Counted from the stretch's first letter, positions 2,327 through 27,126 are shown. The stretch: DNA of 27,145 nt from a virus (IMGVR_UViG_3300006118_000039:1-27145); one strand, 5' to 3'. Numbers and translations: made by a program. Notes: generated by a model from the letters alone, not told the origin.

Positions 2327-2341
2327 GCGAACGCCGTTCGC
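2327..2341. promoter_or_regulatory. Palindrome GCGAACGCCGTTCGC, copy 1 of 5 (intergenic)
   Basis: 7-bp inverted arms around one base; the motif recurs at 12507, 20691, 21494 and 26861. Confidence 0.8.
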
Positions 2342-2362
2342 CGATCCTGAAAGGACAAGCTC

Positions 2363-2884
2363 ATGTCTTCCCCGAACCTGAACCTCACGCTGGCCCTGGT
2401 GGGCTCGGTGGCCGGAACCAGCCCGATCACCGGCACGTCGCTGAACGAGGCGGTCAACGTCCAGCAGCTGCTGCAGCTGCTCGCCGGCACCGGCGCCGGC
2501 CAGGCCGACACCATCCTGCAGCAGACCGGCTCGATCGCCGCCTCGGGCACCCTGGCCGTCGACCTGAACGGCGCGGCGACCGACGTCTTCGGCGCCACCG
2601 TCAACCTGCTGCACGTCAAAGCGATCATCCTGCTGGCCTCGTCGGCCAACACCAATGACGTGCAGATCTCGCCCGGCGCCTCCAACGCCTTCACCGGCCC
2701 GTTCAGCGGCACCACGCCCGCCGTGGCCGTGAGCCCGGGCGAGATGTTCCTGATCACCAAGGGCAGCGGCTCCCAGGTCGGCTGGCCGGTCGTCGCCGCC
2801 ACCGGCGACATCCTGAAGCTGGCCAACAGCGGCGCGGGCACGGCGGTCGGCTACACCCTGATCGTCATCGGCACCTCGACATAG
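2363..2884 (+). CDS. Hypothetical virion structural protein
   Basis: 173 aa rich in G/T/S/A; SD AAGGA; lies between neck genes. Confidence 0.7.
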   Translation: MSSPNLNLTLALVGSVAGTSPITGTSLNEAVNVQQLLQLLAGTGAGQADTILQQTGSIAASGTLAVDLNGAATDVFGATVNLLHVKAIILLASSANTNDVQISPGASNAFTGPFSGTTPAVAVSPGEMFLITKGSGSQVGWPVVAATGDILKLANSGAGTAVGYTLIVIGTST

Positions 2885-2897
2885 TCGGGGGTCGGCC

Positions 2898-3140
2898 ATG
2901 GCCTGGTGCACGTTCACGCGCGACTTCGATTTCCGGATCGAGCATCACACCACCATCGCGTTCAAGGCTGGCATGCGGCTCTGCGTCACCCGCGACCAGC
3001 TGGCGGCGGCCGTGGCGGCCGGCGCCGGCCACGCGATCCCGACGCCGCCCAAGGACTTCCAGGAGATCGGCCATGCTCGGACCCTTCCGGAAGGACATGC
3101 GCCAGCGGATCCAGTTCCAGCGCGCCACGATCGGCCGTGA
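2898..3140 (+). CDS. Small hypothetical phage head/neck-region protein
   Basis: FTRDFDF...IAFKAG...AAVAAGAG pattern recalled from alphaproteobacterial phage morphogenesis clusters. Confidence 0.6.
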   Translation: MAWCTFTRDFDFRIEHHTTIAFKAGMRLCVTRDQLAAAVAAGAGHAIPTPPKDFQEIGHARTLPEGHAPADPVPARHDRP

Positions 3141-3441
3141 CGCCCTGGGCGGCTCGACGCTGAGTTGGGCGGACTATGGAACCAGCCGGCAGGCCAACCT
3201 GACGCCCTACCGCGCCCAGAAGCGCGGCGGGGCGGAAGAGGTGATCGCCGCGCGGCTGCAGGGCACGGCCGTCTTCGACTGTTGGGTGCTCTATGACAGC
3301 CTGACCTCGACCATCACGCCCGACGACCGGCTCTATGACGTCACCAAGCCGGGCGTCTATTACAACATCCGGTTTGCCCAGGACATGGACAGCCGCAAAC
3401 AGCGGATCCTGATGCAGGTCGAGTTGGGAATCGCGGCCTGA
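3073..3441 (+). CDS. Head closure / head-tail joining protein (SPP1 gp16-like)
   Basis: MRQRIQFQR...DALGG...W...EEVIAARLQG...YNIR; SD AGGAG. Confidence 0.85.
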   Translation: MLGPFRKDMRQRIQFQRATIGRDALGGSTLSWADYGTSRQANLTPYRAQKRGGAEEVIAARLQGTAVFDCWVLYDSLTSTITPDDRLYDVTKPGVYYNIRFAQDMDSRKQRILMQVELGIAA

Positions 3442-3845
3442 TGGAAACCAAGGTCATCGGCCTCGAGAAGCTGCTCGCGAAGTTCGCGCAGATTCCGCAA
3501 AAGGTGCAGGACGCCGCACGCACCGCCAACGATCAGAACGCCCTCGAATTCATGCAGGGCGTTCTGTCGATCATCCCGCGCGAGGAGGGCAAGCTGGCCG
3601 ACACCCTGGTGAAGGAGCCGGGCAAGACGCCCACGGCCGTGCGCGTGGCGATCGGCGGCCCCGGCGCGCCCTATCCGGCGCACCTGGAGTTCGGCCACCG
3701 CGACGGCAAGGGCCATGTGCCGGCCAAGCCGTTCTGGTTCACCACGCTGCGCCTGGGCCGCAAGCGCTGGCGCGGCCGCACCAGCCGGGCGACCTCGAAG
3801 GCGATCAAGGACAATTCGGCGGGGGGCGGCAATGGCGAGTCGTGA
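3441..3845 (+). CDS. HK97 gp10-like tail completion protein
   Basis: VIGLEKL, P..EGKL, YPAHLEFG, VPAKPFW. Confidence 0.85.
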   Translation: METKVIGLEKLLAKFAQIPQKVQDAARTANDQNALEFMQGVLSIIPREEGKLADTLVKEPGKTPTAVRVAIGGPGAPYPAHLEFGHRDGKGHVPAKPFWFTTLRLGRKRWRGRTSRATSKAIKDNSAGGGNGES

Positions 3846-4290
3846 TCCGGCCTATGCGATCCAGGTGGCCGTTTCGGCCGCGCTGATGGCCAGCCCCGAC
3901 CTGGCGGCCGTGTTCGGCGGCGCGCCGCGCGTGTGGGACCGCGTGCCGGCCGATAGCGCGACGCAACAGGCGGATTTTCCCTATCTGACGATCGGCGAGG
4001 ACCAGCTGATCGGAAAGACCAACCAGAACACCGACGTGACCGAGGTGTGGGTCAAGGTCGAGGCCTGGAGCCGGGCGGCCAACAAGGGCGAGGTGAAGCT
4101 GATCGCCGGCGCGGTGCGCACGGCGCTGGACACCTATCTCGACCTGTCCTCGAACGGTCACGGCGTCATCGCCCACACCTTTCACAATGTGATCTATCGC
4201 CGCGAGCCGGACGGCCTGACCGAGCGGGCGATCATCACCCAGCACTACCTGACCGCGCCGATCGGCGCGCTGAACTATTCGGGCTTCTAA
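3832..4290 (+). CDS. Tail terminator (DUF3168-like)
   Basis: IQVAV..AL, RVWDRVP, FPYLTIGEDQ, WSR, REPDGLT; start at ATG 3832. Confidence 0.85.
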   Translation: MASRDPAYAIQVAVSAALMASPDLAAVFGGAPRVWDRVPADSATQQADFPYLTIGEDQLIGKTNQNTDVTEVWVKVEAWSRAANKGEVKLIAGAVRTALDTYLDLSSNGHGVIAHTFHNVIYRREPDGLTERAIITQHYLTAPIGALNYSGF

Positions 4291-4344
4291 GCCCCTTCAC
4301 CGTTCCGGGCCCGCGGCCCTTCAAACCTCTTTCAGGAGAGCCCC

Positions 4345-4794
4345 ATGGCCACCGTTCAGAATGCACCTGGCGAACAACTCGTCCTTCAGCTGGGAAACGG
4401 CGCGACGCCCGAAGTCTTCACGGCCACGTGCACCATCAACACCACGCGCACGCTGGACCTGACGGCCATCGCCAGCGTGACCGAGCTGGCCGACTGCGTC
4501 ACGCCTTCGAACCCGGCGATCACGTACCGCCAGATCAAGAGCTATGACATCAAGGTCAGCGGCAGCGGCATTGCCGACGCGCCCTCGATTCTGGCGCTTA
4601 TCCAGTGGTGGCAGGGGGGCGCGCAGAAGAACTGCAAGGTGGTGCAAAACCGCACGGGCGCGCAGGGCGGTTTCACCATCACCGCGCCGTTTGTGGTCAC
4701 CAGCCTGCAGATCGCCGGCGCCCGGGGTGACATGCAGACCTTTACCGGCACGTTCGAACTGGCCGGCGCGCCCACCGTGACGGCCAACGCCTGA
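4345..4794 (+). CDS. Major tail tube protein (GTA/TP901-1-like)
   Basis: GNGATPEVFT...VSGSG...FVVTSL; SD AGGAG; position in the tail operon. Confidence 0.85.
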   Translation: MATVQNAPGEQLVLQLGNGATPEVFTATCTINTTRTLDLTAIASVTELADCVTPSNPAITYRQIKSYDIKVSGSGIADAPSILALIQWWQGGAQKNCKVVQNRTGAQGGFTITAPFVVTSLQIAGARGDMQTFTGTFELAGAPTVTANA

Positions 4795-5246
4795 TGAGCC
4801 GCACGGCGCAGATCATTCTGCCGTTCGGCGCGGAAGAGCGGGTGTTTCGCCTGGGCCTGGGCGAGCTGCGGGCGATCCAGGAGAAGTGCGACGCGGGGCC
4901 CGGACATATCGCCCAGCGCCTCGCGCCGATGGTGCGCGGGCTGCACGCCAAGCTGTCGCTGCCGGACATCATGAGTGCCGGCATGATGGGCGACTGGCGG
5001 GTGGACGACGTGCGCGAGCCGATCTTGCAGGGCCTGATCGGCGGGGGGATGAGCCCCACCGAGGCCGGCGTTCTGATGCGCCAGGTGTTCGACCCGCGGC
5101 CGCAGGACCTGCGCCACATCACCCTGGCGTTCGCGATCCTCACCGAAGGCTATTTCATGCCGGAGGATGAGCCCGCGCCGGGGGAGCCGAAGGCCGCGCC
5201 GAAAGCGCGGCGCTCCCGCGCGGCAAGATCGACTTCCGCGCGCTGA
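4794..5246 (+). CDS. Tail assembly chaperone (GTA gp10-like, lambda G analog)
   Basis: FRLGLGELRAIQEKC, DVREPILQGLIGGGM; lies between the tail tube and tape measure genes. Confidence 0.85.
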   Translation: MSRTAQIILPFGAEERVFRLGLGELRAIQEKCDAGPGHIAQRLAPMVRGLHAKLSLPDIMSAGMMGDWRVDDVREPILQGLIGGGMSPTEAGVLMRQVFDPRPQDLRHITLAFAILTEGYFMPEDEPAPGEPKAAPKARRSRAARSTSAR

Positions 5247-5422
5247 TCGGGGCGGGGGCGGTGATGGGTTTCACGCCGGGCCAGACCTGGGCGATGAGCC
5301 TGTGGGAATTCAGCGCGGCTTTCGACGGCTGGCGCCGCGCCAACACCGCGCCCGAGGAAAACGCCGCCTTCCCCACGCCGGCCGAACACCTGGCCAATGT
5401 GGAACGCATGACCATCCACTAG
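5180..5422 (+). CDS. Tail assembly chaperone C-terminal extension (lambda T analog), probably made by -1 frameshift; absent from the ORF track
   Basis: G GGG GAG at 5180-5186. The -1 frame is open to TAG 5420-5422 and encodes MGFTPGQTWAMSLWEFSAAFDGW. Confidence 0.75.
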   Translation, partial: GGAEGRAESAALPRGKIDFRALIGAGAVMGFTPGQTWAMSLWEFSAAFDGWRRANTAPEENAAFPTPAEHLANVERMTIH

Positions 5423-5431
5423 GAGATTCGC

Positions 5432-7468
5432 ATGGCTGACGGCGAAGTCGTCGAGCGCCTTGTCGTCGAGTTCGACGCCAAGATCGACAAGATCCTGACC
5501 AAGCTGAACAACCTCAACCGGTCGGTGCATGGCAGCGCCGCCGAGATCGAGAGAACGTTCGGCTCCATCAAGATCGACGAGGCGCTGGACCGGGTGTTCA
5601 GCAGCTCCAAGCTGCAGGTGCTGGACTCCGGCGCGGAAAAGCTGGGCGTCTTCGGCAAGGCCCTGGAGCCCTTGGGCGCGCTGGGCCTGGGCGCGGCGGC
5701 CGGGATCGGCGCGATCGGCCTGGCGATCGAACAGTCTATCAAGGCCGCCGAATGGGCCGAAAACCTGGAGATGGTGTCCAAGAAACTCGGCATCACCACC
5801 ACGGCGCTGCAGGAGTTCGATTTCATTGCCACGGCCTCGGGCGTGCCGATCGAGTCGATGCGGGAATCGCTGGGCGGCCTCGAGGCCAAGATCGGCCAGG
5901 TGCAGGCGGGTGTCGCCAAGGCGCAGACGGTCAAGCTGTTCGAGGCGCTGGATATCAGCCCCGATCAGCTGCGGCACATGGGCGATCTTCAGACGATCCT
6001 GCCGGTGATCGCCGAAAAGCTGCGCGAGCTGCCGGCGGCCGAGCGCGAAGGCCTGGCCGCGCGCCTTGATGTGACGCCGATTCTGCCGGCGCTGCTGAAG
6101 GGCAAGGAAGGCCTGGCCGACCTGACGGCCGAGGCCCACCGTTATGGCATCGTCGTCGACGAAGACGTGGTCAAGCGCAGCGCCGAGGCGGCCGAAAAGC
6201 TAAAGGTCGCCGGCGACATCATCGACAAGAACCTGAAAGCGGCGTTCGCCGATCTCGCCCCCGCGATCGCAGGGGCGTCAATGGAACTGGCTAAGTTCGT
6301 CCACAACATGGTCAGCGGGCTCAGCGACCCGAAAGTCCTGCGTTTCCTTTCGATGATGAACAAGCCGATCGGCATGTTCACGCCCTTCGATGCTTCCGGC
6401 GCGATCGACAACATATTGAACGGCCAACTCAACGTCGGGCTGCCGCTCGACAAGCTGAAACTGGGCGCCGATCCCGCGAAGGGCGAAACAAGGGTGACGG
6501 AGCTTCTAAAGCAGCTCGACCGAAAGAGCGCCGGGCACGCCGCTCGGGCGTCGGCCGTAAGCAGCGAAACCGACGACGGCTCGGCCGCGCGCGCCGCCGA
6601 AGGCCAGAAGCTGATCGCCTCTTCGATCGAGGAAGAGCTGCGCGCCCGCGAGGCCCTGACCAACAACGCCAATGACCGGCTGGCCCTGGCGATCAAGCTG
6701 ATCGACATCGAGACCCAGGCCAAGATCAAGGCCAACGAGGACCTGGTCGCCAAGGGTAAGCTGAGCCAGGCCGACGCCGACGCGGCGAACCTGATGATCG
6801 GCATCGCGGCGGCCGAGCGCCAGCAGGCGCTGCAGAAGGCGCGGGCCGACAAGATCGAGGCCGACGCGGCGGCCAAGGCCGCCGCGACTTCGGAGGCGAC
6901 CAAGGCGCGGATGGCGGAGGTTCAGACCGCCTACAAGAATGCGATCAGCGGCGCGCTGGACGCCGCTATTCACGGCGGCTGGCCGGGCCTGGCCCGCTAT
7001 ATGGGCCAGATGCTGGAGCAGCACCTGGTGGACGCGATCGCCAACGCCCTGACCAACCAGATCCTGGGCGGCGGCAGCAACGGCGGAATTTTCGGGATGC
7101 TGTTCAGCAGCCTGTTCGGCCTGCCCAAGTTCGCCACCGGCACGGATTCCGCGCCCGGCGGCTGGTCGATCGTGGGCGAAAAGGGCCCGGAGCTGCTGAA
7201 CCTGAAACAGGGCTCGCAAGTGGTGCCCAACGGCCTGCTGCGCGGCCTGCCCAACGCCAACACCCAGATGGGCGGGGGCAATATGCAGGTGATCTCGTTC
7301 GACCTGCGCGGCGCGGTGATGACCGAGGACCTGCTGGCCCAGATGGATCGCATGGCCAACCAGGCCGGCCAACAGGCCACGCTGCGCGGCGCCGCCCTGG
7401 GCGCGCAGGTGGCCCGCCAGACCATTCCCAGCGACATCGGGCGCAGCCGGCGGCTGAGCCTGGTCTGA
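5432..7468 (+). CDS. Tape measure protein
   Basis: 678 aa, Ala-rich and helical; N-terminal VERLVVEFDA, C-terminal FATG...VGEKGPELL. Confidence 0.9.
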   Translation: MADGEVVERLVVEFDAKIDKILTKLNNLNRSVHGSAAEIERTFGSIKIDEALDRVFSSSKLQVLDSGAEKLGVFGKALEPLGALGLGAAAGIGAIGLAIEQSIKAAEWAENLEMVSKKLGITTTALQEFDFIATASGVPIESMRESLGGLEAKIGQVQAGVAKAQTVKLFEALDISPDQLRHMGDLQTILPVIAEKLRELPAAEREGLAARLDVTPILPALLKGKEGLADLTAEAHRYGIVVDEDVVKRSAEAAEKLKVAGDIIDKNLKAAFADLAPAIAGASMELAKFVHNMVSGLSDPKVLRFLSMMNKPIGMFTPFDASGAIDNILNGQLNVGLPLDKLKLGADPAKGETRVTELLKQLDRKSAGHAARASAVSSETDDGSAARAAEGQKLIASSIEEELRAREALTNNANDRLALAIKLIDIETQAKIKANEDLVAKGKLSQADADAANLMIGIAAAERQQALQKARADKIEADAAAKAAATSEATKARMAEVQTAYKNAISGALDAAIHGGWPGLARYMGQMLEQHLVDAIANALTNQILGGGSNGGIFGMLFSSLFGLPKFATGTDSAPGGWSIVGEKGPELLNLKQGSQVVPNGLLRGLPNANTQMGGGNMQVISFDLRGAVMTEDLLAQMDRMANQAGQQATLRGAALGAQVARQTIPSDIGRSRRLSLV

Positions 7469-7471
7469 CGC

Positions 7472-8077
7472 ATGGCGCAACAGCTGACGCACCTGCCGCT
7501 GCCGTGGACGGCGGCGCCCAGCCTGCTGGATTTCGGCGTCGACCAGACGGCGGGGTTCGGCGGATCGGGCGCGCAGGGGCGATCGGTGCGGCTGGGCTCG
7601 CGCTGGGCCGTGTCGTTCAGCGCCCTGCCGGCCCTGGGCTATGCCTGCGCCCAGCAGCTGATCGCCGCCCGCCTGGCGGCGCACGCCGCGGGATCCACAG
7701 TGATCACCAGCTGGCCGCAGCCGGCGTTCGGCTCGGCCATCGGCTCGCCGGTGATCGATGGGGCGCAGGGCGGTAACACGATCAACCTGCGCGGGCTGAT
7801 CGCCGGGGCCAGCCTGCCCACGGGCCTGTTCTTCAGCTTCCAGATCGCCGGGCGAAACTATCTCTACATGACCACGGCGGCCGGCGTCGCCACGGGCGCG
7901 GGCAAGCTGACCGTGGCGATCGCGCCCTGGCATCGGGCCACGCCCACGGACGGCGCGGCGGTGAGCTTCGCGGCGCCGCAGGTCGAGGGCTTCATCACCC
8001 CGGCGGGCGTGACGTGGGACCTCGAGCGGCTGGCCTGGGTCGGCCTGCCGGCGTTCACGATCACGGAGGTCGCATGA
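7472..8077 (+). CDS. Distal tail protein-like
   Basis: Directly after the tape measure gene; GG..Q...RLGSRW and C-terminal FTITE. Confidence 0.7.
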   Translation: MAQQLTHLPLPWTAAPSLLDFGVDQTAGFGGSGAQGRSVRLGSRWAVSFSALPALGYACAQQLIAARLAAHAAGSTVITSWPQPAFGSAIGSPVIDGAQGGNTINLRGLIAGASLPTGLFFSFQIAGRNYLYMTTAAGVATGAGKLTVAIAPWHRATPTDGAAVSFAAPQVEGFITPAGVTWDLERLAWVGLPAFTITEVA

Positions 8078-8748
8078 GTCTGCCCACCGGCCTGACGACG
8101 GCGCTGGGCGCGGATTCGCCGCTGATCTTCTTCGCCGTGGAGATCATCTTTCCCACCTTCAACCTGCGCCTGCTGGATGGGCCCGCGGTGCTGAGCCTCA
8201 ACGGCAATACCTTCGTGGGTCTGGACGCCACCTATGGCGCGCTGGCCGGCCCGGAGGCCTGGAGCGATGGCGTCTCGTCCGAGGCGCCGCACGTGATGTT
8301 TCAGATCCAGCCGCCCACCACGGGCGCGGCGGCCTCGCTGTGCAACCCGGCCTATCAGGGCAGCGTGGTGAACATCTGGTTCGGGGCCGTCAACCGCGCC
8401 ACCGGCGCCACGGTCAGCGCGCCCTATCTGGCGTGGTCGGGTTTCGTCGACACCATGACGCTGGCCATCGATCGCAACGCCCGCGTGGTGAAGGTGGACG
8501 CCGAAAGCACCTGGGACCGGTTCTTTGACACCGACGAGGGCATCCTTCTGGACAACTCGACACATCAATCGATCTGGCCCGGGGAACTGGGCCTGGAGTT
8601 CGTGACCTATGTGCAGCAGCAGGTGCCGTGGGGATCGGATGCGCCGCGGCCGATCGTGGTGAGCGACACCCTGGGCGGCCAGCCGGCCGGCGCGGGCCAG
8701 GGCATGGGCGGCTATCGCCCCGGCGCGTTCGGGACGTGGCGGCTGTGA
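8074..8748 (+). CDS. Minor tail / tail-tip hub protein
   Basis: ATG 8074 with SD GGAGG; WSGFVD, HQSIWPGELGLEFV, WG motifs. Confidence 0.7.
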   Translation: MSLPTGLTTALGADSPLIFFAVEIIFPTFNLRLLDGPAVLSLNGNTFVGLDATYGALAGPEAWSDGVSSEAPHVMFQIQPPTTGAAASLCNPAYQGSVVNIWFGAVNRATGATVSAPYLAWSGFVDTMTLAIDRNARVVKVDAESTWDRFFDTDEGILLDNSTHQSIWPGELGLEFVTYVQQQVPWGSDAPRPIVVSDTLGGQPAGAGQGMGGYRPGAFGTWRL

Positions 8749-12506: not shown

Positions 12507-12521
12507 GCGAACGGCGTTCGC
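12507..12521. promoter_or_regulatory. Palindrome GCGAACGGCGTTCGC, copy 2 of 5 (upstream of endolysin)
   Basis: Exact reverse complement of copy 1; intergenic. Confidence 0.8.
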
Positions 12522-14382: not shown

Positions 14383-14412
14383 CGTTCTGCGGCCGGAACG
14401 CCGGGCGAACAC

Positions 14413-14432
14413 GGTTCGGGACTATTTCGGGG
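14413..14432 (+). repeat. Putative integrase arm-type site, left
   Basis: GGTTCGGGACTATTTCGGGG, 19/20 identical to 14652-14671; inverted half-site CCCGAACC at 14440-14447. Confidence 0.7.
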
Positions 14433-14545
14433 AATCTCTCCCGAACCAGCCCCGATCTACGCCATTTGTTCCCGTTTCGCGCGCCGCCGCGCCACGCCCC
14501 ACGCCGATTTTTGGCGATTAAATATATGATTTTTAATCGGAAAAT

Positions 14546-14593
14546 TGGCGTCCCGTAGAGGACTCGAACCTCTGACCCCCGGTTTAGGAAACC
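14546..14593 (-). mobile_element. attP core: 3' half of tRNA-Arg(CCT)
   Basis: Minus strand GGT-TTCCTAA-ACCGG-GGGTC-AGAGG-TTCGAGT-CCTCT-ACGGGAC-G-CCA gives anticodon loop, T arm, acceptor strand and CCA with no 5' half; adjacent to the integrase 3' end. Confidence 0.9.
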
Positions 14594-14608: not shown

Positions 14609-15736
14609 CTAGGCCTTGTTCCGTATCGTCTTTTCGCCTTCGGGGTTCGGGGGTTCGGGACTATTCCGGGGGACGTCGTCAACCAGCGCCCTCAAATCGG
14701 CCTCGAGGACGTGGGCGTAGCGCAACGTGCTCTTGATGTCGGCGTGGCCCAGCAGCTCCTGCGCCAGGCGCAGGCTCCCGCGGCGCGTGGCCGTGCTGCC
14801 GGCGTGGTGGCGGGTGCCGTGGATGAGTCGGCCGGGGGCGATCCCGGCGCGCGCCGCCGCCCCGGCCAGGCGCGCCTTGAGGCCGTGATAGGTGAGCGGC
14901 GCTAGCTTGGCCTTCGCGCGGCCCTTCGCCGGCGTTTCCGCGAACCAGATGTGATCGAGGCCGGCGGCCTGGGCGCGGCCGACGCGGGCCGCGATCTCCC
15001 GGGCATCGTCCTGGCGCAGCGGCAGGATCAGCGGCACGTCCCGTTTGCGCTTGCGGACCGCCAAGCGTCGGCCCTCGGCGTCGAAGGCGTCGAGCTCGAA
15101 GAACAGTTCGCCATAGCGCAGGCCATAGGTGAGCAGCATCCGCAGGGCCAGCGCCGGCGCGGGCCCGCACTCGGCCAGCCACGCGGCCTGTTCGGCGGCC
15201 GAATAGACGCGCACCGGCGGCGCGGGCTCGGCGAGCTTGAGATCACGCCACGCGATCGCCGGCAGGCCCTTGGCGCCCCAGTGCGTGGCCGCGCGGCGCA
15301 GGATCGGCCGCAGGGTCTCGATGACGTCGCGGTTGACCGTGGCGTTCGACGGCAGGCGCTTCTGGGACTCCTTGCCGCCGCGGCGATAGGTGATGGCGCG
15401 GCGCTTCTGGATCGCCGTCGAAATGGCCGGGGTGTCGATATCGGCCAGGATGGTCGCGGGGCCCATGATCGCCAGCAGGGCCGCCACGCGGCGCTCGACA
15501 TCGTCGCAATCCGCCCGCCGCGATCCGACCTCGGCCCACCACTTCCCGGCGGCCTGGTCGAGCGTGAGGGTGCTGGCCTCGCCTAGCCGGCCTTCCGCCG
15601 CCTCGAGGCGGAGGCGGCGCTCGGCGGCCTCGGCGGCGCGTCGTGTTTCCTGCCCGGTCGAGCCGTGAAAGCGACGACCCCTGAGGACGAAGTCGAATTG
15701 CCAGAAGCGGCTTTTGGCCGGCTTGTAGACGGACAC
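14609..15736 (-). CDS. int: Tyrosine integrase
   Basis: GTG 15736 with SD GAGGAGG; GLRYGEL, HGTRH, LLGHADIKSTLRY catalytic motifs. Confidence 0.95.
   Translation of the reverse strand: MSVYKPAKSRFWQFDFVLRGRRFHGSTGQETRRAAEAAERRLRLEAAEGRLGEASTLTLDQAAGKWWAEVGSRRADCDDVERRVAALLAIMGPATILADIDTPAISTAIQKRRAITYRRGGKESQKRLPSNATVNRDVIETLRPILRRAATHWGAKGLPAIAWRDLKLAEPAPPVRVYSAAEQAAWLAECGPAPALALRMLLTYGLRYGELFFELDAFDAEGRRLAVRKRKRDVPLILPLRQDDAREIAARVGRAQAAGLDHIWFAETPAKGRAKAKLAPLTYHGLKARLAGAAARAGIAPGRLIHGTRHHAGSTATRRGSLRLAQELLGHADIKSTLRYAHVLEADLRALVDDVPRNSPEPPNPEGEKTIRNKA
14652..14671 (+). repeat. Putative integrase arm-type site, right (within int 3' end)
   Basis: GGTTCGGGACTATTCCGGGG, preceded by further TTCGGGG units. 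Confidence 0.7.
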
Positions 15737-19119: not shown

Positions 19120-19125
19120 GTGAAT

Positions 19126-19461
19126 TTACGCCTTGCGCTGGAGGATTTCGCCGGTGGTGGGGTCGACCGCATCGGCGAATATGCGGACCTGGTTGGGGTC
19201 TTCCCGGAGCAGATCGCCGTCGAGGTCGGCGAAGAACAGCGCGTCTGGCAGCGCCGCCTGGGGCCGCTTCGACTTGACCTCGCAGGCCAGGATCACGGCG
19301 TTGTCGCCTTTGCCCTGGGGGCTGATCTTGATCTTCAGGACCAGTTCGCCCGGCTTTTCGGTGTCGAGCACCGCGCGCACGACGGCGGCCAGTTCGTCGC
19401 TGGCGGCCTCGACGACGCGGCCTCGGCGGATGTCGCGCAGGACGTCGGTGATCAGGCGCAT
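19126..19461 (-). CDS. Conserved partner of DUF2303 (YfdP-like)
   Basis: ATG 19461 with SD GAGGAG; L..VV.AV..T.K.G.L.L.I.I.P, FF...GDL.REDPNQ. Confidence 0.75.
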   Translation of the reverse strand: MRLITDVLRDIRRGRVVEAASDELAAVVRAVLDTEKPGELVLKIKISPQGKGDNAVILACEVKSKRPQAALPDALFFADLDGDLLREDPNQVRIFADAVDPTTGEILQRKA

Positions 19462-20786
19462 TCGGATAACTCCTCGGGTTGGGGAATGGGGTCGGCGACG
19501 CCGGCCAGGGCGTTGACGGCGCGGGCGATCAGGAACGGAAGGATCGCGCCGGGCGACCAAAGCTCGACCAACTGGTCGTCGGCGTCATAGACGCCCTCTT
19601 CCGTGTCCTCGGTCTCGTCTTGCCAGCGCCAGGGCAGCGGGTGGCATAGCGTTGCGAGGATCTCGGCAACGTCGGCCGACGGGTCGCGGGCGCGTTGCAG
19701 CAGCTGGTCGTGGGCCTTCTGGGCCTCGGCGTATTTCGTGGCTTCGGCCTCGCGGCGCTGGGCGGATTCCGCCCGCGACGCCTCGTCCTCGGCCGCGCGC
19801 TGGGCCAGCTTGGCCAGCAGCTCGGCGTCAGGCTCGAACGGGCCGTTCAGCCAGCAGGTGCGATATCCCTCTGGGCCCGGTTCGAGCGGTGCGCACTCGC
19901 GTAGGCGATCGCCGGCGCTGTAGGCCAGCCGAAGATAGAGCCGGGCGTCGGCATGGGCGCGCCAAACCTCGAAACGATCGTTGAAACGGGCGCCGTACTC
20001 CGCGCCCCCAGAACCCACTTCAATGCGCCGCCGTTCCCATTCGTTTATGGGTTCGGGCGCGACGGCCAGCGCGTGCTGAATTTCGCAGGCGGCGATGCGG
20101 TCGGCCTCGTCCTGGAACACGAACGCCGGAGCACGGTTGGCCAGTTTCCGGCGCGCGTCCTCGACATTGATTTCGCCGTTGTCGAGCCGCGCCTGGTCGC
20201 GCGCATCGAGTTCCAGCAGCTGCAGGCGCTGTTGCACGAACCTCTGGGTGCGGTTGACGCGCGTGGCGATGGCGTCGGTCTTCTGGCCAAACGTGTCGCG
20301 CAGCGCCTTGAACGCGCGCGCCTCCTCCAGCGGCTTGAGATCGCGCCGAACAAGGTTTTCCATCAGCGCCTGAACGGCGCGGGTCTCGGCGTCTAGGCCG
20401 GCCATGGCCCTGCAGGGAATGAGCCGGTCGGGATCCCATCGGCCATCCTGAAACAGCTTGTCGATGGCCCGCCAACGGCGCTCGCCGGCGATGAGCTGGT
20501 GGCGCAAACCCGTCCAATCGCGTTCGGCGATCACGACAAGGTTCTGCATCAGGCCATAGGTGGCGATGCTTTCGGCGAGTTCGGCCAGGGCCTCGTCGTC
20601 GAAATCCGTGCGCGGATTATTCGGATCGGGAATGATCTGGCCGTGGCGCAAATAGAGCATGTCGCTCGGCGGCGTCGCCGGCTCATCGTCGCGAACGCCG
20701 TTCGCCGCGCCGGATAGCGGATTGACGGCGGCCAGCGCGGCCGTGGTCGCGGCCTGGCGTTCGGCCAGGGTGGGGCGTTTGCCCAT
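19452..20786 (-). CDS. ParB/RepB/Spo0J family protein (no parA in window)
   Basis: NPRTDFD, LAESI..GLMQNLVV, LIAGERRWRA, ENLVRRDL.PLEEA, HTH, then a long unrecognised C-terminus. Confidence 0.9.
   Translation of the reverse strand: MGKRPTLAERQAATTAALAAVNPLSGAANGVRDDEPATPPSDMLYLRHGQIIPDPNNPRTDFDDEALAELAESIATYGLMQNLVVIAERDWTGLRHQLIAGERRWRAIDKLFQDGRWDPDRLIPCRAMAGLDAETRAVQALMENLVRRDLKPLEEARAFKALRDTFGQKTDAIATRVNRTQRFVQQRLQLLELDARDQARLDNGEINVEDARRKLANRAPAFVFQDEADRIAACEIQHALAVAPEPINEWERRRIEVGSGGAEYGARFNDRFEVWRAHADARLYLRLAYSAGDRLRECAPLEPGPEGYRTCWLNGPFEPDAELLAKLAQRAAEDEASRAESAQRREAEATKYAEAQKAHDQLLQRARDPSADVAEILATLCHPLPWRWQDETEDTEEGVYDADDQLVELWSPGAILPFLIARAVNALAGVADPIPQPEELSECA
20691..20705. promoter_or_regulatory. 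Palindrome copy 3 of 5 (inside the 5' end of parB)
   Basis: GCGAACGCCGTTCGC, encoding ANGVR in the N-terminal extension of ParB. Confidence 0.8.
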
Positions 20787-20788
20787 GG

Positions 20789-21145: not shown

Positions 21146-21456
21146 GCGGCCTTCGCCGGGGCGCGGGTGGCGTGCAGGGCGGCGGAAATGGTTTCGAAGG
21201 TCACGCCCTCGGCGGCGCGGACCACGCCCAGCAACTCGTCGGCGCCCCCGGCCGGGCCGGTGGCCCAGACCGCCCAGGCGCCGAAGGGCGCTTCATCTTC
21301 CGACCACGCGGCCAGCACCGGGCGCACCGAAAGGCCGCGGCGGCGGCGCAGCACGTGCAGCTGGTGGGCCAGCGCCTCCAGGCCGTCGAACCGCCGTTCG
21401 GCCTCGAACGCCTCGCCCCGTTCACCCGGAAAAAAATCGATCTCGCTGGCCGCCAC
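21142..21456 (-). CDS. Hypothetical protein, first gene of the left operon (start uncertain)
   Basis: 104 aa; its stop overlaps the next start. Confidence 0.6.
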   Translation of the reverse strand: MAASEIDFFPGERGEAFEAERRFDGLEALAHQLHVLRRRRGLSVRPVLAAWSEDEAPFGAWAVWATGPAGGADELLGVVRAAEGVTFETISAALHATRAPAKAA

Positions 21457-21493
21457 GCGCGGAGCCCCCGGCCCCGCGCCGCTCGCCGATCAG

Positions 21494-21508
21494 GCGAACG
21501 CCGTTCGC
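21494..21508. promoter_or_regulatory. Palindrome copy 4 of 5 (leader of the leftward transcript)
   Basis: GCGAACGCCGTTCGC just downstream of the putative PL. Confidence 0.8.
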
Positions 21509-21518
21509 GGGGTGAGGC

Positions 21519-21572
21519 AATGAAGAACCAATATGGTTCCTTTCGTCAAGCCGGAAACAACTATTTTGGTTC
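21519..21572 (-). promoter_or_regulatory. PL-like promoter with two operators (21525-21539, 21558-21572)
   Basis: TTGACG on the minus strand (21544-21549), flanked by GAACCAATATGGTTC and GAACCAAAATAGTTG (read on minus). Confidence 0.7.
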
Positions 21573-21627
21573 CATGCCCTCGACCGATTGCCGTTGACGC
21601 ACTCCTGGACCGCGGCGAAAATGAATC

Positions 21628-22131
21628 ATGAAACCGATTTTGGCCGCGGCGATTTGGATCGCTATGAGCTTCCCGGCGGCATCGCAGCCGGCGTGGTCGT
21701 TTAGGCAAAACAAGGATCCGATGACCGACAAGGTCACCGCACACGCCATTTTGACGGGCGATGTTGGCTCTCTTGGAGTTGGGTGCTCCGGAGCGGCTGG
21801 GTCCGACCCGGGCGTCAGCATTATCGTCGTGACAGATGAGTTTTTAGGGCAAGATATTTTGGGGCGGGGGCGTCCTGGCCGCGTGCGGTTTGACGATCGA
21901 AAGATGTCGGAGACCACTTGGCATTATGGTTCAAACGGCGCTTGGCCCGATGACGCGGAGACCGCTAATTTCGTAGCGCGGTTATTGGCCGCGCAAAAAT
22001 TGGCAATTCAATTAACGACGTTCGAAGATCACAACGTGACGATCGCGTTTGATGCATCGGGCGGCCAGGACGCGCTTCGGCAGGTTTACGCCGCTTGCGG
22101 ATATTCCCTTCCGGCGCCGAATTCAAATTAG
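21628..22131 (+). CDS. Exported/periplasmic protein, moron-like
   Basis: Sec signal peptide MKPILAAAIWIAMSFPAASQPA, W....DPMTD; lower GC; own TTGACG-N17-GAAAAT at 21594-21622. Confidence 0.7.
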   Translation: MKPILAAAIWIAMSFPAASQPAWSFRQNKDPMTDKVTAHAILTGDVGSLGVGCSGAAGSDPGVSIIVVTDEFLGQDILGRGRPGRVRFDDRKMSETTWHYGSNGAWPDDAETANFVARLLAAQKLAIQLTTFEDHNVTIAFDASGGQDALRQVYAACGYSLPAPNSN

Positions 22132-22805
22132 TCGCCGCGAAGCGTTACGGCATAGACGCCTTTAATTTCGTTTAAAGGAAAACGAAGCGTCTCGGGCGGG
22201 TTCAACTGTTCGACGACCAGAAAACCGTTTTCCGAACGATTATATAACTTTACGTAATATTCGCCCTCTTTAGTCTCGATCACGCACCCATAACCCCGCC
22301 TGGGATAGCGATCCCGATCGTAGATAATAATTTCGCCTGGCTCTCCCCACGGAAGCATCGAATCGCCAGCCAATTGAAGCACGCCGGCGTTCGGACCGAT
22401 CAATTGAAATAGGTCAATGGTTCGGCTCGGCTCTCCCGCGTCATAAATTTGAGGGCCAATCGAACCGGCCTGAACGCGACCCATTACCGGAAGCTCAAAT
22501 CGACTGGCTGGCTCGCGCACGCCGGGCGCGGAATGTTCCTCATCTCCGGCTAGACGACGCACCTCCGTTTCCAGGGCGTGACGGTCGGCGTCGACCGCGC
22601 GCGCCAAACGCTCTTGAAGGTCAGACCGAAGCACGGCGTGGCGCTCGCCTGCCTCGTAGCGCCCCCAGGCCTGAGCCGTGATGCCCATGCGCTCCGCCGC
22701 TTCCGCCTGCGACAATTGCGCGCGTCGCCGTAACGCCAGAAGCGCACGTCCCGTCAGCTCGCGCTGGCTATCCGTAGAGACGGTTGGTTTCGTCATAGGA
22801 CGCAT
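22128..22805 (-). CDS. cI: CI-like repressor (Xre HTH + S24 peptidase); start at 22805 or 22796, less likely 22841
   Basis: LRRRAQLSQAEAAERMGITAQAWGRYEAG; VQAG cleavage site, GDSM Ser, YVK Lys. Confidence 0.92.
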   Translation of the reverse strand: MRPMTKPTVSTDSQRELTGRALLALRRRAQLSQAEAAERMGITAQAWGRYEAGERHAVLRSDLQERLARAVDADRHALETEVRRLAGDEEHSAPGVREPASRFELPVMGRVQAGSIGPQIYDAGEPSRTIDLFQLIGPNAGVLQLAGDSMLPWGEPGEIIIYDRDRYPRRGYGCVIETKEGEYYVKLYNRSENGFLVVEQLNPPETLRFPLNEIKGVYAVTLRGD

Positions 22806-22854
22806 AATGCGATCTGGACGAACCGAGGGAACATGGAACATGGTGTGGTGATAT

Positions 22855-22896
22855 AAACCAAAACGGTTGCTAAACCAAAGGAATCGTTTCTAGACT
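22855..22896 (+). promoter_or_regulatory. PR-like promoter and operator
   Basis: AAACCAAAACGGTTG (22855-22869) resembles the OL sites; TTGCTA-N18-TAGACT. Confidence 0.65.
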
Positions 22897-22904
22897 GCCC
22901 GTCG

Positions 22905-23198
22905 ATGAAAAATCGATGCCCCAATGCAGTGCCGCTGCCCCTTCCGCGGCTGACCACCTGGCTGTTGGAGCGAGGGCTCAGCGCCCGTGACGCCGCCGAA
23001 AGCCTAAACGTAACGCCGCAGGCGGTGCGTCGGTATTGTTTGCCGTTTGGCCATCGCGACCGACAAATACCTCGCGGTGACATCATGTCGAGAATTCACA
23101 AGTGGACCGGCGGTCAAGTCGGGCCGGCGGATTTTTATCCGCCTGAACTTTCCCAAGCGAACGAAAACTCTGCCAAAACAGTGGAGGTTGAGCCGTGA
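22905..23198 (+). CDS. Cro-like HTH protein
   Basis: Divergent from cI; LSARDAAESLNVTPQAVRRY...IP...T.GQV.PADF. Confidence 0.8.
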   Translation: MKNRCPNAVPLPLPRLTTWLLERGLSARDAAESLNVTPQAVRRYCLPFGHRDRQIPRGDIMSRIHKWTGGQVGPADFYPPELSQANENSAKTVEVEP

Positions 23199-23488
23199 GC
23201 TGTAGGCCATCTGTGTTCCGCTTCGATGGCCCGCGCGCCCTGCCGGCGGCGCGGCTGACGGCCGATCTGCTGCGCGTGGCCAGCGCCGGACGCGGGCTTC
23301 AGGATCTGCTGCGGCGCATCGCGGATGACCCGGAACCGTTGCTGGCCATGTCGGACGATCCCGATGATCGTGTGGCCCTGGTGCAGGCGCGCGGCCGGCT
23401 CGACGCGGCGCGGCAGTTGATGGACGAGGCCGAGGCGCTCCTGCGCGCCCGCGCCTATCCCGCCCGGCTCGAGGCGGCGGAGAAATGA
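23195..23488 (+). CDS. Hypothetical helical protein
   Basis: GTGA overlap, SD GGAGG. Confidence 0.65.
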   Translation: MSCRPSVFRFDGPRALPAARLTADLLRVASAGRGLQDLLRRIADDPEPLLAMSDDPDDRVALVQARGRLDAARQLMDEAEALLRARAYPARLEAAEK

Positions 23489-23904
23489 ACCGGGGGCGCG
23501 CCATTGCCGCACGGCGCGCCTATATGCCGCCGATCGAGGCGCGCAGCCGTTGGAGCGTGCTCGTGCACGCGGCCATCGACATCGCCGATCGGGCCAGCGG
23601 CCTCGTTCTGGCCGAGCCACGGGCCGGCCGGCGCGGATCGGCGAGCGCGAGCCTATTTGATTTCGCGCACCTGCTGGTCGAGCGCGGGCGGCCCGTCTTT
23701 CCCGTCGAGGGCGCGACGCCGGCCATGATGGCCGAGGCCTTCCTGAAGGTGGCGCGGGCGTTTGTCGACGCCGGAACCCAGGAACGCCGCGAGACCTATG
23801 CCCCGGCCCTGGCGGCGATGGCCCGGGCGCTCGACGCCCTTCTGCACGACGACCGGCGTGAGCGCGCGCAGGTGTGGGCGGCGCATGCGGGAGATTTCGA
23901 CTGA
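23485..23904 (+). CDS. Hypothetical protein
   Basis: ATGA overlap, SD GGAG. Confidence 0.65.
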   Translation: MNRGRAIAARRAYMPPIEARSRWSVLVHAAIDIADRASGLVLAEPRAGRRGSASASLFDFAHLLVERGRPVFPVEGATPAMMAEAFLKVARAFVDAGTQERRETYAPALAAMARALDALLHDDRRERAQVWAAHAGDFD

Positions 23905-24359
23905 TGCTGGGCCGCGAGGATCCCGATTGGGAACGCCGCAAGGTGCGCGAGCTGCGCGACCGTGGCGTTTCCTGGCAGCACATATCCGCCCAGCTGGGCC
24001 GCTCGCAGATCGACCTTCGCATGCTGTATGGCCAGCCAAGCGCGGCGCTTAGCGTTGGGTCCGCGCCGTCGCCGCCCAAGACGCCGGAGCCCGTTGCCAA
24101 GCCGGCCGGAGCCGCGCGCAATCACGGGGCGGCCATGGGCGCGGCGCTGTTGGCGCTGAGCGCCGGACAGCGGTGGCGCGCCTGCGATCTGGCCGAATGC
24201 TGCGGCGCGCACCAATCGCTGGCGCACTACCTCGCGCGGCGCGGCCTGGTCGAGAACGTCAGGCCCGGCTCGAACGTGGCGCTGTTCCAAATTACCCAGG
24301 CCGGCCGCGACCGGCTGGCCGAACTGATCCGGCGCGGCCTTGTGGTTGGCGCTCCATGA
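23904..24359 (+). CDS. Putative two-HTH DNA-binding protein
   Basis: ATG 23904; LRDRGVSWQHISAQLGRS and winged-helix-like LARRGLVE...FQITQAGR. Confidence 0.6.
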   Translation: MLGREDPDWERRKVRELRDRGVSWQHISAQLGRSQIDLRMLYGQPSAALSVGSAPSPPKTPEPVAKPAGAARNHGAAMGAALLALSAGQRWRACDLAECCGAHQSLAHYLARRGLVENVRPGSNVALFQITQAGRDRLAELIRRGLVVGAP

Positions 24360-25042
24360 GCGACCGCCCGTCCGGATTCCTCGCCGTGATGGCCGATCGC
24401 GCGCCCACCGATGTGGACGACCTCGACTATTTCCCGACACCGCCCTGGGCGGCGCGGGCCGGCGGCGAGCTGATCAAAAGCATTGATCCCCAGGCGCGCA
24501 CCGCGTGGGAGCCGGCGTGCGGCGGCGGCCATATGGCGCACGGCCTGGCCGACTATTTCGAGACCGTCTGGGGCAGCGATATCCACCCGCACGGCGACCA
24601 TCGCCTGGGCGATTTCCTGAACCTCGATCCGGCTGAGGCGTGGCCCGAGGCCGACTGGATCGTGACCAATCCGCCCTTCGTGCGCGGCGAGGCCTTCGTG
24701 CGCGAGGGCTGGCGGCGCGCGCGACGCGGCGTGGCGATGTTGCTTCGCTTGTCTTTTCTGGAAGGCGTGGCGCGGCACAAACTACTTTACAAAGACTTGC
24801 CGCTCTATGCCTGCGCGCCGTTCGCCGAGCGCGTGCCGATGGTCAAGGGCCGTTGGGACCCGGCGGCCAGCAGCGCCACGGCCTATGCGTGGTTCGTCTG
24901 GTTCAAGCCGGGCCTGGGCGTCTGGCCCGCGCCGCTGCTGATGCCCATTCCGCCCGGCGCCCGCGCCCGGCTGACCCATTCCGCCGACGCCGAGACCTTC
25001 GGCGCGGCGGCCAACCAAACCCTCTTCGATGAGCCGCGCTGA
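24356..25042 (+). CDS. Orphan SAM-dependent amino (probably N6-adenine) DNA methyltransferase
   Basis: ATG 24356; YFPTP, WEPACGGG (motif I), TNPPF (motif IV), YAWFVW. Confidence 0.88.
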   Translation: MSDRPSGFLAVMADRAPTDVDDLDYFPTPPWAARAGGELIKSIDPQARTAWEPACGGGHMAHGLADYFETVWGSDIHPHGDHRLGDFLNLDPAEAWPEADWIVTNPPFVRGEAFVREGWRRARRGVAMLLRLSFLEGVARHKLLYKDLPLYACAPFAERVPMVKGRWDPAASSATAYAWFVWFKPGLGVWPAPLLMPIPPGARARLTHSADAETFGAAANQTLFDEPR

Positions 25043-25335
25043 TGCAGACCGAGATCGCGATGTTTTCGCTCTGGCGCGGCCAGATGGCCGTGCGCGGTCG
25101 GCTGACCATGCGGCAGATTCTGGCCGACGTCGCCAGCGAGCGCGGCACGACACTTGACGCGATTCGAGGTCGCGAGACCGTGCGCGCCACGACGGTGATC
25201 CGCGATGAGTTCTACGCCCGCGCCAACGACGCCGGCCACGCCTATGCGGCGATCGGCCGGCTGCTGGGCCGCCACCACACCAGCGTGATGGCCGGCGCGC
25301 GCCGCCATCGTCGCCGCCAGGCCTGCGCCGGATGA
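25042..25335 (+). CDS. DnaA C-terminal-domain-like HTH protein
   Basis: ILADVA...I.G..R...R...IGRLLGRHHTSVM, resembling the DnaA domain IV RDHTTV signature. Confidence 0.75.
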   Translation: MQTEIAMFSLWRGQMAVRGRLTMRQILADVASERGTTLDAIRGRETVRATTVIRDEFYARANDAGHAYAAIGRLLGRHHTSVMAGARRHRRRQACAG

Positions 25336-26243
25336 GCCTGCAGGCGCTTTCCGCCGCGCTGTCGTCGCGCATCGACGAGCTCGGCCTGTCGTGCGCCCAG
25401 CGGTTCATCCTGTTCCTGCTGGGCAACTGGGCGAACGAGGACGACGTCGCCTTTCCGTCGATCCGGATGCTGACCCGCAAGACGGGTCTGAGCGAGCGCG
25501 GCGTGCAGGTGGCGATCAACCATCTGATCAAATTCGGCCTGGTGGAACGCATCGAACGGGCCGTTCCGGGGGAGCGTCAGAAGTCGAATTTCTACCGTCT
25601 TTCGTTCGTCGAAACCGCCGCGACCCCCGCACTCAGTGCACCCATATCCCCGCACTCAGTGCACCCCACCCCCGCACTCAGTGCACCCCTCACTACGTTA
25701 GACACGAAAATAGATACTACAGATGCTGACGCATCTGGCGCGGGCGCGCGCGCGGCGGCGTTCGATCGGTTGAGATCGGGCTGGGCCCGGGTTTCGCCGG
25801 GCCGTCTGGCGCCGCGGATGGCCGAGGCGGCGTTCGAGGCGGCCTGCGAGCGGTGCGAACCCGATCGGCTCGCCGACGCCGGGCTGCGCTACCTCGCCGA
25901 AGATCCCGACGTGAAACGGCTCGGCACGGCGATTCGGCTGGATCGCTGGCTGGACGAGGCGCGGTTCGTCGGCTGGCTGACCTCGGCGGGCGATCCGCCG
26001 CCGCGATCGGTGTCGGCGGCGCGGCGCTGGTCCGGTCCGGAGAAGATCCGCGACGTGCTGACCGAGGTCGCCGGCGCGCCGTTCGTCGCCAGCTACCTCG
26101 ATCCCGCCGAATGGGACGCCTCGACGAACGCCATTCGCGCCGCCACCGGCATCGGCCTGGGCGCGCTGCAACAGTTCCGCCTGCTGCTTTCACGTCACGG
26201 CGTCGAGCGGATCGAGAAACGTGCGAGCCAATCTGGGGGATGA
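25332..26243 (+). CDS. Phage replication initiator (N-terminal winged HTH)
   Basis: FPSIRML..TGLSERGV..AI..L..GLVER..SNFY; internal iterons. Confidence 0.82.
   Translation: MSLQALSAALSSRIDELGLSCAQRFILFLLGNWANEDDVAFPSIRMLTRKTGLSERGVQVAINHLIKFGLVERIERAVPGERQKSNFYRLSFVETAATPALSAPISPHSVHPTPALSAPLTTLDTKIDTTDADASGAGARAAAFDRLRSGWARVSPGRLAPRMAEAAFEAACERCEPDRLADAGLRYLAEDPDVKRLGTAIRLDRWLDEARFVGWLTSAGDPPPRSVSAARRWSGPEKIRDVLTEVAGAPFVASYLDPAEWDASTNAIRAATGIGLGALQQFRLLLSRHGVERIEKRASQSGG
25625..25724 (+). repeat. Replication origin: three 19-bp iterons plus AT-rich tract
   Basis: CCCCGCACTCAGTGCACCC at 25625, 25648 and 25670, followed by an A/T-rich stretch. Confidence 0.82.
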
Positions 26244-26246
26244 GTC

Positions 26247-26762
26247 GTGATCCACACACCGATGCCGACCGAGCCCCGCTGGTACATCGTCCAGACCAAC
26301 GTGCGCGAGGAAGTGCTGGCGCGGTCTTCGATGCGCGCCGAAGGGCTCGACGTCTATCTGCCGATGATGATCAAGCGCAACCGCAAGGGTGAAACCTACG
26401 GCTCGGCGCTGTTTCCGGGCTATCTGTTCACGCGGTTGTCGATCGGTGCGGTGGGCTGGTCCAAGGTCTACTCATCACGCGGCGTGAAGTGCGTGCTCGG
26501 CACGGGCGGCCGCCCGACCTGCGTCGCGACACGGATCATCGACGAGATCAAGGCGCGCGAGACCGAGGGGTTCATCCAGCTCGGACTGGCCGAACCGGCG
26601 CGGTTCAAGCCCGGCCAGGCGGTCACGGTCAGCAAAGGCCCGTTCGCCCGGCTCGATGCGATTTTCGTTGAGGCCGTTGACAAGCGCCGATGCCACATCC
26701 TAATCCAGCTTCTCGGCGATTCGCAGCGAATCGCCACCGCTGAACTGGCGCACATCGAGTGA
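26247..26762 (+). CDS. NusG/RfaH-family transcription antitermination factor (NGN + KOW)
   Basis: WYIVQT, LFPGYLF, GV..VL, FKPGQAVTV..GPF. Confidence 0.9.
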   Translation: MIHTPMPTEPRWYIVQTNVREEVLARSSMRAEGLDVYLPMMIKRNRKGETYGSALFPGYLFTRLSIGAVGWSKVYSSRGVKCVLGTGGRPTCVATRIIDEIKARETEGFIQLGLAEPARFKPGQAVTVSKGPFARLDAIFVEAVDKRRCHILIQLLGDSQRIATAELAHIE

Positions 26763-26796
26763 GCGCCAGTGCGGATGCCATTCAGCCCCAGGCTGA

Positions 26797-27126
26797 ATGA
26801 TGCCGATCCGGCCCCCTTCATTTTCGCCACGTCCGGCCCAGACCGCGACGGCTTACGACCGCGAACGCCGTTCGCTCAGCCCCACCCGCAAGCTCTACGC
26901 CACCGCCCGCTGGCGCGCCGTCCGCGCCGCGCAACTCCGCGCCGAACCGCTCTGCCGGATGTGCCGCGCCCGCGGCGTCGTCACCCCCGCCACCACCTGC
27001 GATCACGTCGAACCGCATCGCGGCGACGTCGAGGCCTTCTGGTCCGGCCCGTTCCAGTCTCTCTGCACCGCCTGCCACTCCAGCGCCAAGCAGCGGGCCG
27101 AAGGGATGGGGGGTCAAAGTCCCTAA
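26797..27126 (+). CDS. HNH endonuclease (HK97 gp74-like packaging cofactor)
   Basis: LY.T.RW, EPLCRMC, DHVEPHRGD, QSLCTACHS. Confidence 0.9.
   Translation: MMPIRPPSFSPRPAQTATAYDRERRSLSPTRKLYATARWRAVRAAQLRAEPLCRMCRARGVVTPATTCDHVEPHRGDVEAFWSGPFQSLCTACHSSAKQRAEGMGGQSP
26861..26875. promoter_or_regulatory. Palindrome copy 5 of 5 (inside HNH gene)
   Basis: GCGAACGCCGTTCGC. Confidence 0.8.

Follow-up and report, generated by a model that had tools for sequence, protein, structure and literature searches.

The viral fragment IMGVR_UViG_3300006118_000039 (27,145 nucleotides; "the window" below means the whole of this stretch) carries five exact copies of a 15-bp palindrome, GCGAACG(C/G)CGTTCGC, along with a gene for an orphan ParB protein. 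Comparison with several dozen phages, for the most part unrelated, indicates that this phage-encoded ParB is very probably the binder of the palindromes. The initial annotation of the sequence had proposed just this, with a dispersed layout of the KorB/parS type (the SopB sites of prophage N15 are reportedly dispersed as well), and the proposal is well supported by the co-occurrence of sites and protein, by variant site words and by one position of the predicted DNA-binding domain, residue 209. Taken as a whole, the interpretation to which we incline, with moderate confidence, is that ParB exerts early, genome-wide transcriptional control as a sliding clamp, in a manner resembling KorB of plasmid RK2.

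The five copies lie at 2327-2341, 12507-12521, 20691-20705, 21494-21508 and 26861-26875. A third-order Markov model of the window gives an expectation of 0.002 copies (P = 3e-16 for at least five, and 4e-11 once all palindromes with 7-bp arms are allowed for), and the word ranks as the top palindrome of the window; the first estimate, well below 0.001 chance copies, was slightly too low, with no effect on the conclusion. Imperfect copies are in no excess in the window, near-matches with two or three mismatches numbering five further against 5.0 expected. A possible weaker sixth site (14405-14419, between the late terminator and the att region) keeps both the CGAAC and GTTCG arms with a different centre, and by itself is not above chance. 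Four of the five copies extend to C-motif-C in a single orientation, the exception being that at 26861.

With respect to their surroundings, the copies are placed as first annotated. Two follow directly upon stop codons in the late operon: the first begins 1 bp after a TGA, in the 37 bp that separate the head-tail adaptor gene from the late gene after it, and the second, in reverse orientation, begins 3 bp after a TGA between the DUF3310 and endolysin genes. The fourth, 38 bp ahead of the first leftward gene, comes shortly after the predicted promoter for early leftward transcription, whose position appears to be marked by TTGACG at 21549-21544 (minus strand) and by CI-type operators at 21526 and 21559. 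The third falls within codons 28-32 of parB, where it is read as ANGVR and is a candidate site of self-regulation, and the fifth within the HNH gene, where it is read as RERRS. Since such sites turn up in each of the three frames and also outside genes, an origin as a protein motif is ruled out; the sequence AN(G/A)VR recurs in 22 of 120 ParB homologs, which would fit a DNA site retained inside the parB gene.

The association of motif and parB across related phages holds in both directions, whether one starts from the palindrome or from the protein. The word occurs in about 520 viral stretches, and from the 102 distinct contigs returned we took, by length, 50 records of at least 30 kb, 37 of which hold 2-11 copies and 13 a single one. 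A ParB relative is encoded in 30 of the 37 multi-copy records and in 2 of the 13 single-copy ones (Fisher p = 5e-5); among the 16 records that are at least 90% complete, the corresponding figures are 14/14 and 0/2. As for the two single-copy records with a ParB relative, one (G042) has seven copies of a variant word of its own and the other a short ParB that falls outside the clade described next. The seven ParB-negative records of this sample have a median of three exact sites against six, which fits decay or truncation.

The converse sample consisted of 80 loci on viral contigs, fetched using an alignment of eight motif-positive ParBs (a locus search with the window ParB as the lone protein found no relative). 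In a supported clade (98/93; 36 rows, the window protein included), CGAAC-N3-GTTCG is present at 29 of 35 loci as opposed to 1 of 45 outside it, the one outside locus, L225, being a long branch with the same helix; after removal of the 11 contigs shared with the motif-first set, the clade figure is 18 of 24. Six clade loci are without the word, and the five of these that were read further (L227 excepted) each show a palindrome of like shape with a variant sequence. The variant words accompanying clade ParBs include GCGCACG-S, CGAGCG-S, CAAACC-S hybrids and GCGAA-N5 (among G099, G085, G079, L528, G042, G095, G096 and G098). The ParB-like proteins of named phages are distant only, none of the 60 listed exceeding 41% identity, and plasmid matches are also distant. 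Outside the clade, the ParB-like proteins at L207, L230, L240, L244 and L252 adjoin other over-represented palindromes, for example GTAACC-N5, TGATT-N4 and TTCCGC-N0, so that a dispersed layout may be general among phage ParBs.

Could the sites be operators or stoperators of some other phage protein, such as CI, Cro or a further helix-turn-helix (HTH) protein, with parB merely travelling alongside? Three records keep sites without parB, and small divergent HTH proteins would escape tblastn. However, when seven near-wholly read carriers, picked as ParB-positive and sharing at most 940 aligned bases each with the window, were compared with the 44 window proteins, only ParB was present in all seven; the methylase was found in four, which is the highest count for any of the others, CI in three, Cro in two and the NusG relative in none. 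Moreover, the CI/Cro-type operators of the window, AACC-N5-GGTT at 21526-21538 and 21559-21571 (leftward promoter) and at 22856-22868 (between cI and cro), are a different word, as are the iterons of the replication gene, both as originally noted. The variants of the site track ParB residue 209, and its orientation is mixed, the central base on the sense strand being C in 76 cases and G in 40. The label "stoperator-like", used in the initial annotation, also sits poorly with these data: the stoperators of Cluster A mycobacteriophages are asymmetric and oriented with transcription (PMC4351075), whereas the sites described here are symmetric and of mixed orientation. A different phage binder is thus very improbable.

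That the word might belong to the host, either as a repeat or as a target of some host protein, takes some colour from its presence in single copy in many bacterial genomes, some 1100 bacterial stretches matching a 17-bp version. A 29-row ParB alignment was too loose for a pattern search and the eight-row one served for viral contigs only, and bacterial genomes were therefore sampled by DNA pattern: 33 alphaproteobacterial genomes, picked for holding the word from the first 80 matches. The motif is single-copy in 22 of them, has 2-3 scattered copies in six, and 4-14 copies, mostly in clusters of 10-40 kb, in five, so that the generic high-copy repeat that might have explained the palindrome was not seen. 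In all five genomes with 4-14 copies a ParB of the phage type is encoded next to a site or a cluster of sites; in G121 the five copies and the parB gene all fall within 40 kb of an 8.8-Mb genome. The clusters on G116:C39, G122:C82 and G125:C7 have no ParB match on those contigs. Different phages, furthermore, have different words. The host explanation is largely refuted by these observations, and we consider it highly unlikely.

Still less credible is an RNA hairpin, a nut-like site for the NusG paralog. A 6-bp stem does form in four of the five window contexts, but the folding z-scores range only from -1.75 to +1.04, there is no Rfam match, and a NusG relative is found in none of the seven carriers. 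In the variants, DNA dyad symmetry about a single S is preserved and the word changes with a DNA-binding residue; some sites are hybrids whose arms do not match. All three alternatives offered with the initial annotation (another phage HTH protein, a host protein, a NusG hairpin) therefore fare badly, in the light of the 44-protein comparison, the 33 genomes and the folding z-scores respectively.

More specific evidence on ParB as the binder comes from the site word itself. There are two main words, one with an inner G (the window's) and one with an inner C (CGAACC-S-GGTTCG), and they are nearly exclusive: 39 records of the G set hold a single C-type site between them, and 11 new records with at least three C sites hold two G sites in total. 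Lysine or arginine at ParB position 209 is found in 15 of 19 C-type proteins (14 of 18 without L393) and in none of 44 G-type, the best separation among 177 columns and seven residue classes. Eleven ambiguous rows stand outside this count; seven of them fell into line later (an acidic residue with inner G in five, R or an insertion with inner C in two), and the others comprise two mixed and two unresolved. The K/R prediction, suggested by the 80-locus sample, was set down before a new search with the C word, which gave 35 new contigs, including the 11 with at least three C sites. Ten of these 11 have a strong ParB match, and the prediction held in seven of the ten, the other three having S or T at 209 together with a five-residue loop insertion.

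In the window ParB, residue 209 is a glutamate (codon 20160..20162, minus strand) that aligns without gaps to R186 of Noc. This arginine hydrogen-bonds the inner guanine of the Noc site, and ParB has G201 there (PMC7383237); E209 is a candidate reader of the inner base pair. The C-type protein of L184 has sisters, at L150 and L246, that combine His with the inner-G word. The other three specificity positions of ParB and Noc, at 181, 187 and 192, do not separate the two words. We regard the co-evolution of residue 209 and the inner base as suggestive. A further pairing, that of Asp at ParB position 186 with the GCGCAC variant, was dropped: L172 combines the Asp with a GCGAAC word, and in L392 and L528 the variant occurs although Asp is absent.

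The protein concerned has the expected features of its family. The parB gene (19452..20786, minus strand) encodes 444 aa with ParB_N at aa 50-110 and the ParB HTH at aa 149-213, and both PF02195 and PF17762 score above cut-off. Boxes I-III read NPR, GERRWRA and ENLVR, and 63 of 63 family members share the nucleotide-binding residues G101, R104, N144 and R147. The predicted core fold (model pLDDT 94.7) matches Noc, ParB and KorB, the best TM-score among the structures listed being 0.79, for a model-based comparison with KorB (8qa9); by sequence the best match is Noc (E = 7.5e-21), and KorB is the weakest of 13 (E = 8e-5). The C-terminal half (aa 222-444) models with fair confidence, and it gave no usable Atlas match and, among the structure matches listed, none that names a fold. 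Many homologs have an extra N-terminal winged helix. In a relative at L149 (G003:C1:44232), a site is written into the arginine-box codons of ParB itself, which read GERRSR in place of GERRWR.

By analogy with ParB, Noc and KorB, loading and sliding gated by cytidine triphosphate (CTP) is probable. The catalytic glutamine, Q52 of Myxococcus ParB, is replaced in the window protein by N57 (codon 20616..20618, minus strand) and is Asn in 61/63 family members, whereas five host chromosomal ParBs have Gln at that position; the catalytic glutamate (E93 of M. xanthus) is kept in the window ParB and changed in 14/63. Because the catalytic Gln is Asn, one may tentatively think of long-lived clamps: in Myxococcus ParB the Q52A mutant remains able to bind CTP, close and load, with far slower release (bioRxiv 10.1101/2021.05.05.442810). 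The same substitutions could be taken to mean that the CTP domain is vestigial and that ParB is a static dimeric repressor or roadblock that does not slide, and the C-terminal half indeed matches no known dimerisation domain. Against this, the four nucleotide-binding residues are invariant throughout the family, the Q52A protein retains all steps up to loading, and a static repressor has no evident use for an even 5-kb spacing, so that such a repressor appears improbable.

This spacing emerges from the 25 records with at least four positions, where the sites are spread more evenly than at random (sum of coefficients of variation 10.6 against 19.1 +/- 1.3; 0/5000) with a median gap of 5.5 kb; in the window alone the evenness is not significant (p 0.3). 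According to a crude custom gene caller, 79 of 128 sites lie within called genes and 49 outside, against an intergenic background of 17%, so that intergenic gaps are favoured yet most sites are in genes, which make up 83% of the DNA. Around the start of the parB core, from -400 to +200, a site is present in 15 of 27 records, against an expectation of 2.0. The parB gene is itself consistently placed. A tyrosine integrase is present in 35 of 49 carriers, and parB lies 2.7-9.9 kb upstream of it on the same strand in 32 of the 35 records with both; in the window the integrase occupies 14609..15736 (minus strand), with parB upstream in the same early arm.

In lambdoid phages the integrase-side arm is transcribed early, and in the lysogen it is silent. 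Since parB sits in this arm, ParB is likely to act after entry or induction, a timing in which we have reasonable confidence. Silencing of the prophage, one of the roles first suggested for ParB, is for the same reason less likely than was proposed, the lysogen normally keeping that arm off.

On the interpretation that we favour, a ParB dimer would read the two half-sites through its HTH, with residue 209 facing the inner base; it would bind CTP, close as a ring at each palindrome and slide outward. Sites placed every 5 kb or so would thereby allow ParB to coat the entire phage chromosome soon after infection or induction; this coat would probably tune phage transcription, including feedback on its own operon. 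As to whether the outcome is regulatory rather than mechanical, we consider the question evenly balanced.

The mechanical alternative is that ParB loads as described, its job being to position, condense or shield the free phage circle via host factors or its own C-terminal domain rather than a phage ParA. Even tiling over structural genes and the 79/128 coding sites suit coverage better than promoter control, and the extra N-terminal winged helix of many homologs could tether to other DNA. The enrichment of sites at parB and between genes speaks for regulation, however, and with a tyrosine integrase most carriers would need no plasmid partition as lysogens. A partner ParA is also hard to find: it is full-length in 1 of 49 carriers, with partial matches in two, and no Walker-A ParA motif is present in the window, which is an incomplete record. 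The ParA-binding motif at the ParB N-terminus, (L/F/I)G(K/R)G(L/F/I) (PMC12704722), is absent from the window ParB and from 120/120 homolog N-termini. This mechanical alternative is, in our judgement, rather unlikely.

Several observations weigh against the interpretation that we favour. The initial annotation had named persistence of the motif without parB as telling against ParB, and this is seen in part. Six of the nine parB-less multi-copy records look truncated (G034 ends inside parB; G016, G022 and G055 are without integrase; G046 and G049 are cut beside it). Truncation leaves three unexplained: G013 (five sites) and G021 (three sites) keep the integrase-side early arm, and G067 (two sites) appears to keep the integrase side, all without parB; these could be relics. 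Conversely, a clade ParB is encoded in G100, where 40 kb of sequence show no clear dispersed palindrome, and on the bacterial contig G125:C7 (176745-186772) seven copies fall within 10 kb, denser than in the phages, with no ParB match on the contig. With respect to residue 209, the word changes seven times on a weakly resolved tree built without the 209 region, and the supported branches offer only two or three independent pairs, none of them contrary (sign test p 0.5, not significant). Four of the 19 C-type proteins are without K/R, and the recognition helix differs in a divergent subfamily (L171-L173) whose word is the same. The Gln-to-Asn change might also mean the absence of a CTP cycle. 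A purely regulatory role is weakened because most sites are far from any likely promoter. Finally, the one full parA, beside parB in G071, points to partitioning: there a site lies directly upstream of the parA-parB operon (G071:C1:42797-44600), five more C sites are dispersed, and an integrase fragment is present. This lineage is a possible link of the dispersed layout to true partition systems.

Among known systems the closest in design is KorB with its operator OB in RK2 (IncP-1), where 12 odd-length, S-centred sites are spread over about 60 kb (PMC13768133) and KorB represses at a distance as a clamp (PMC11790492). The two systems share a ParB-family protein, an odd palindrome with a central G/C and about one site per 5 kb over the replicon. 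They differ in that ours belongs to an integrating tailed phage, with the word GCGAACG-S-CGTTCGC in place of TTTAGC-S-GCTAAA, no ParA/IncC partner in nearly all carriers, a longer, unrelated C-terminal half and Asn for the catalytic Gln. No KorA-like partner is common to the seven carriers, though a small divergent one could escape detection. The phage system thus works like KorB/OB yet, by its word, orthology and partner, is not a member of it. Nor does it belong to ParABS: there is no cognate ParA and no ParA-binding motif, and the sites are spread rather than clustered at one centromere. With Noc and its sites (NBS) and with chromosomal ParB/parS it has in common the HTH frame, in which the Noc R186/ParB G201 position appears to switch the inner base, and Noc is likewise an orphan with dispersed sites (PMC7383237). 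Their palindromes, however, are 16 bp and even where this one is 15 bp and odd, phage-borne and without a parAB operon, and nothing here points to membrane binding or to control of division.

Other relatives resemble the phage system in part. BisD of the integrative and conjugative element (ICE) ICEclc (PMC12409273) and VirB of Shigella (PMC10770331) are ParB-like CTP clamps with short loading sites that control transcription at a distance, and both show that such clamps can also activate. BisD, moreover, carries one additional domain and works on a mobile element as this becomes active; it differs in having two loading sites from which it slides some 50 kb (PMC12409273), whereas here many sites tile the element and no BisC-like partner was identified. 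The Cluster O mycobacteriophages have genome-wide 17-bp dyad repeats, unoriented, many in genes and mostly away from promoters, and they encode a ParB-like protein; they have more than 30 sites, no integrase, and another host phylum and word. In the part of that work dealing with the repeats, their function is left open, the ParB-like gp90 being one of three candidate binders (PMC4351075). HerB (YfjB) of F-like plasmids, too, is a long ParB-like orphan whose C-terminal module is new and which is produced as soon as the DNA has entered, but it is described as binding host chromosomal DNA without a consensus site rather than the plasmid that encodes it (PMC13370423), while the candidate sites here are on the element and nearly absent from host DNA. 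SopB with IR1-4 of N15 is a phage-encoded ParB type with several sites, in a non-integrating plasmid prophage that has SopA (PMC7205306); the phages described here mostly integrate and do so without ParA. The ParB-methylase fusions of Paracoccus phages are another class (PMC6536676). Orphan ParB-like genes are described as common in prophages and mostly without known target (PMC12704722), and our literature search, which left most subscription journals and supplements outside its coverage, brought up no publication that links dispersed sites with an orphan ParB of a phage.

As regards the phage itself, the record is the 27,145-base fragment alone, with the genes for packaging and head falling outside it. 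Its tail and lysis genes and tyrosine integrase are those of a lambda-like temperate phage, and the leftward early arm holds the parB, CI, rep, NusG-like and HNH genes. Judging from the names attached to ParB homologs, the host is likely a caulobacter-type alphaproteobacterium, and the carrier phages in general are temperate and likely alphaproteobacterial. Phage sequence is contained in freshwater metagenome runs; two of five runs hold at least half of the words, and one may be the source run. No RNA data set containing the phage is among the public runs listed, and no differences at the palindromes were listed among contigs of four runs, where coverage is patchy. Contigs of other organisms match an att-like stretch at 14544-14593 and continue from there into tRNA-like sequence, so that the phage likely integrates at a tRNA gene; the window holds no complete one. 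The space that separates the leftward promoter from cI contains an inserted low-GC gene (21628-22131, plus strand; PHROG 1848), convergent on cI and with a hydrophobic N-terminus, a candidate moron or exclusion gene. Three iteron-like direct repeats of about 19 bp lie within the replication gene at 25625-25690.

For one large clade of orphan ParBs these results supply a precise candidate site together with several natural variants and a swap at one residue, and the variant ParB/site pairs might find use as orthogonal tools for DNA labelling. More speculatively, the system may amount to a phage "chromatin" in a widespread class of integrating phages: a slow-releasing clamp, produced as soon as the phage enters or is induced and loaded every 5 kb, would coat phage and not host DNA and mark it as self, shielding it from host defence or repression or carrying an effector in the variable C-terminal half, with one-residue word switches giving private, non-cross-reacting coats; we consider this doubtful at present. 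If the clamp interpretation is true, the CTP-switched sliding clamps of chromosomes, plasmids and ICEs would also run genome-wide programmes in lambda-like phages, and the genome-wide palindromes of other phages, such as those of Cluster O, would gain a candidate binder.

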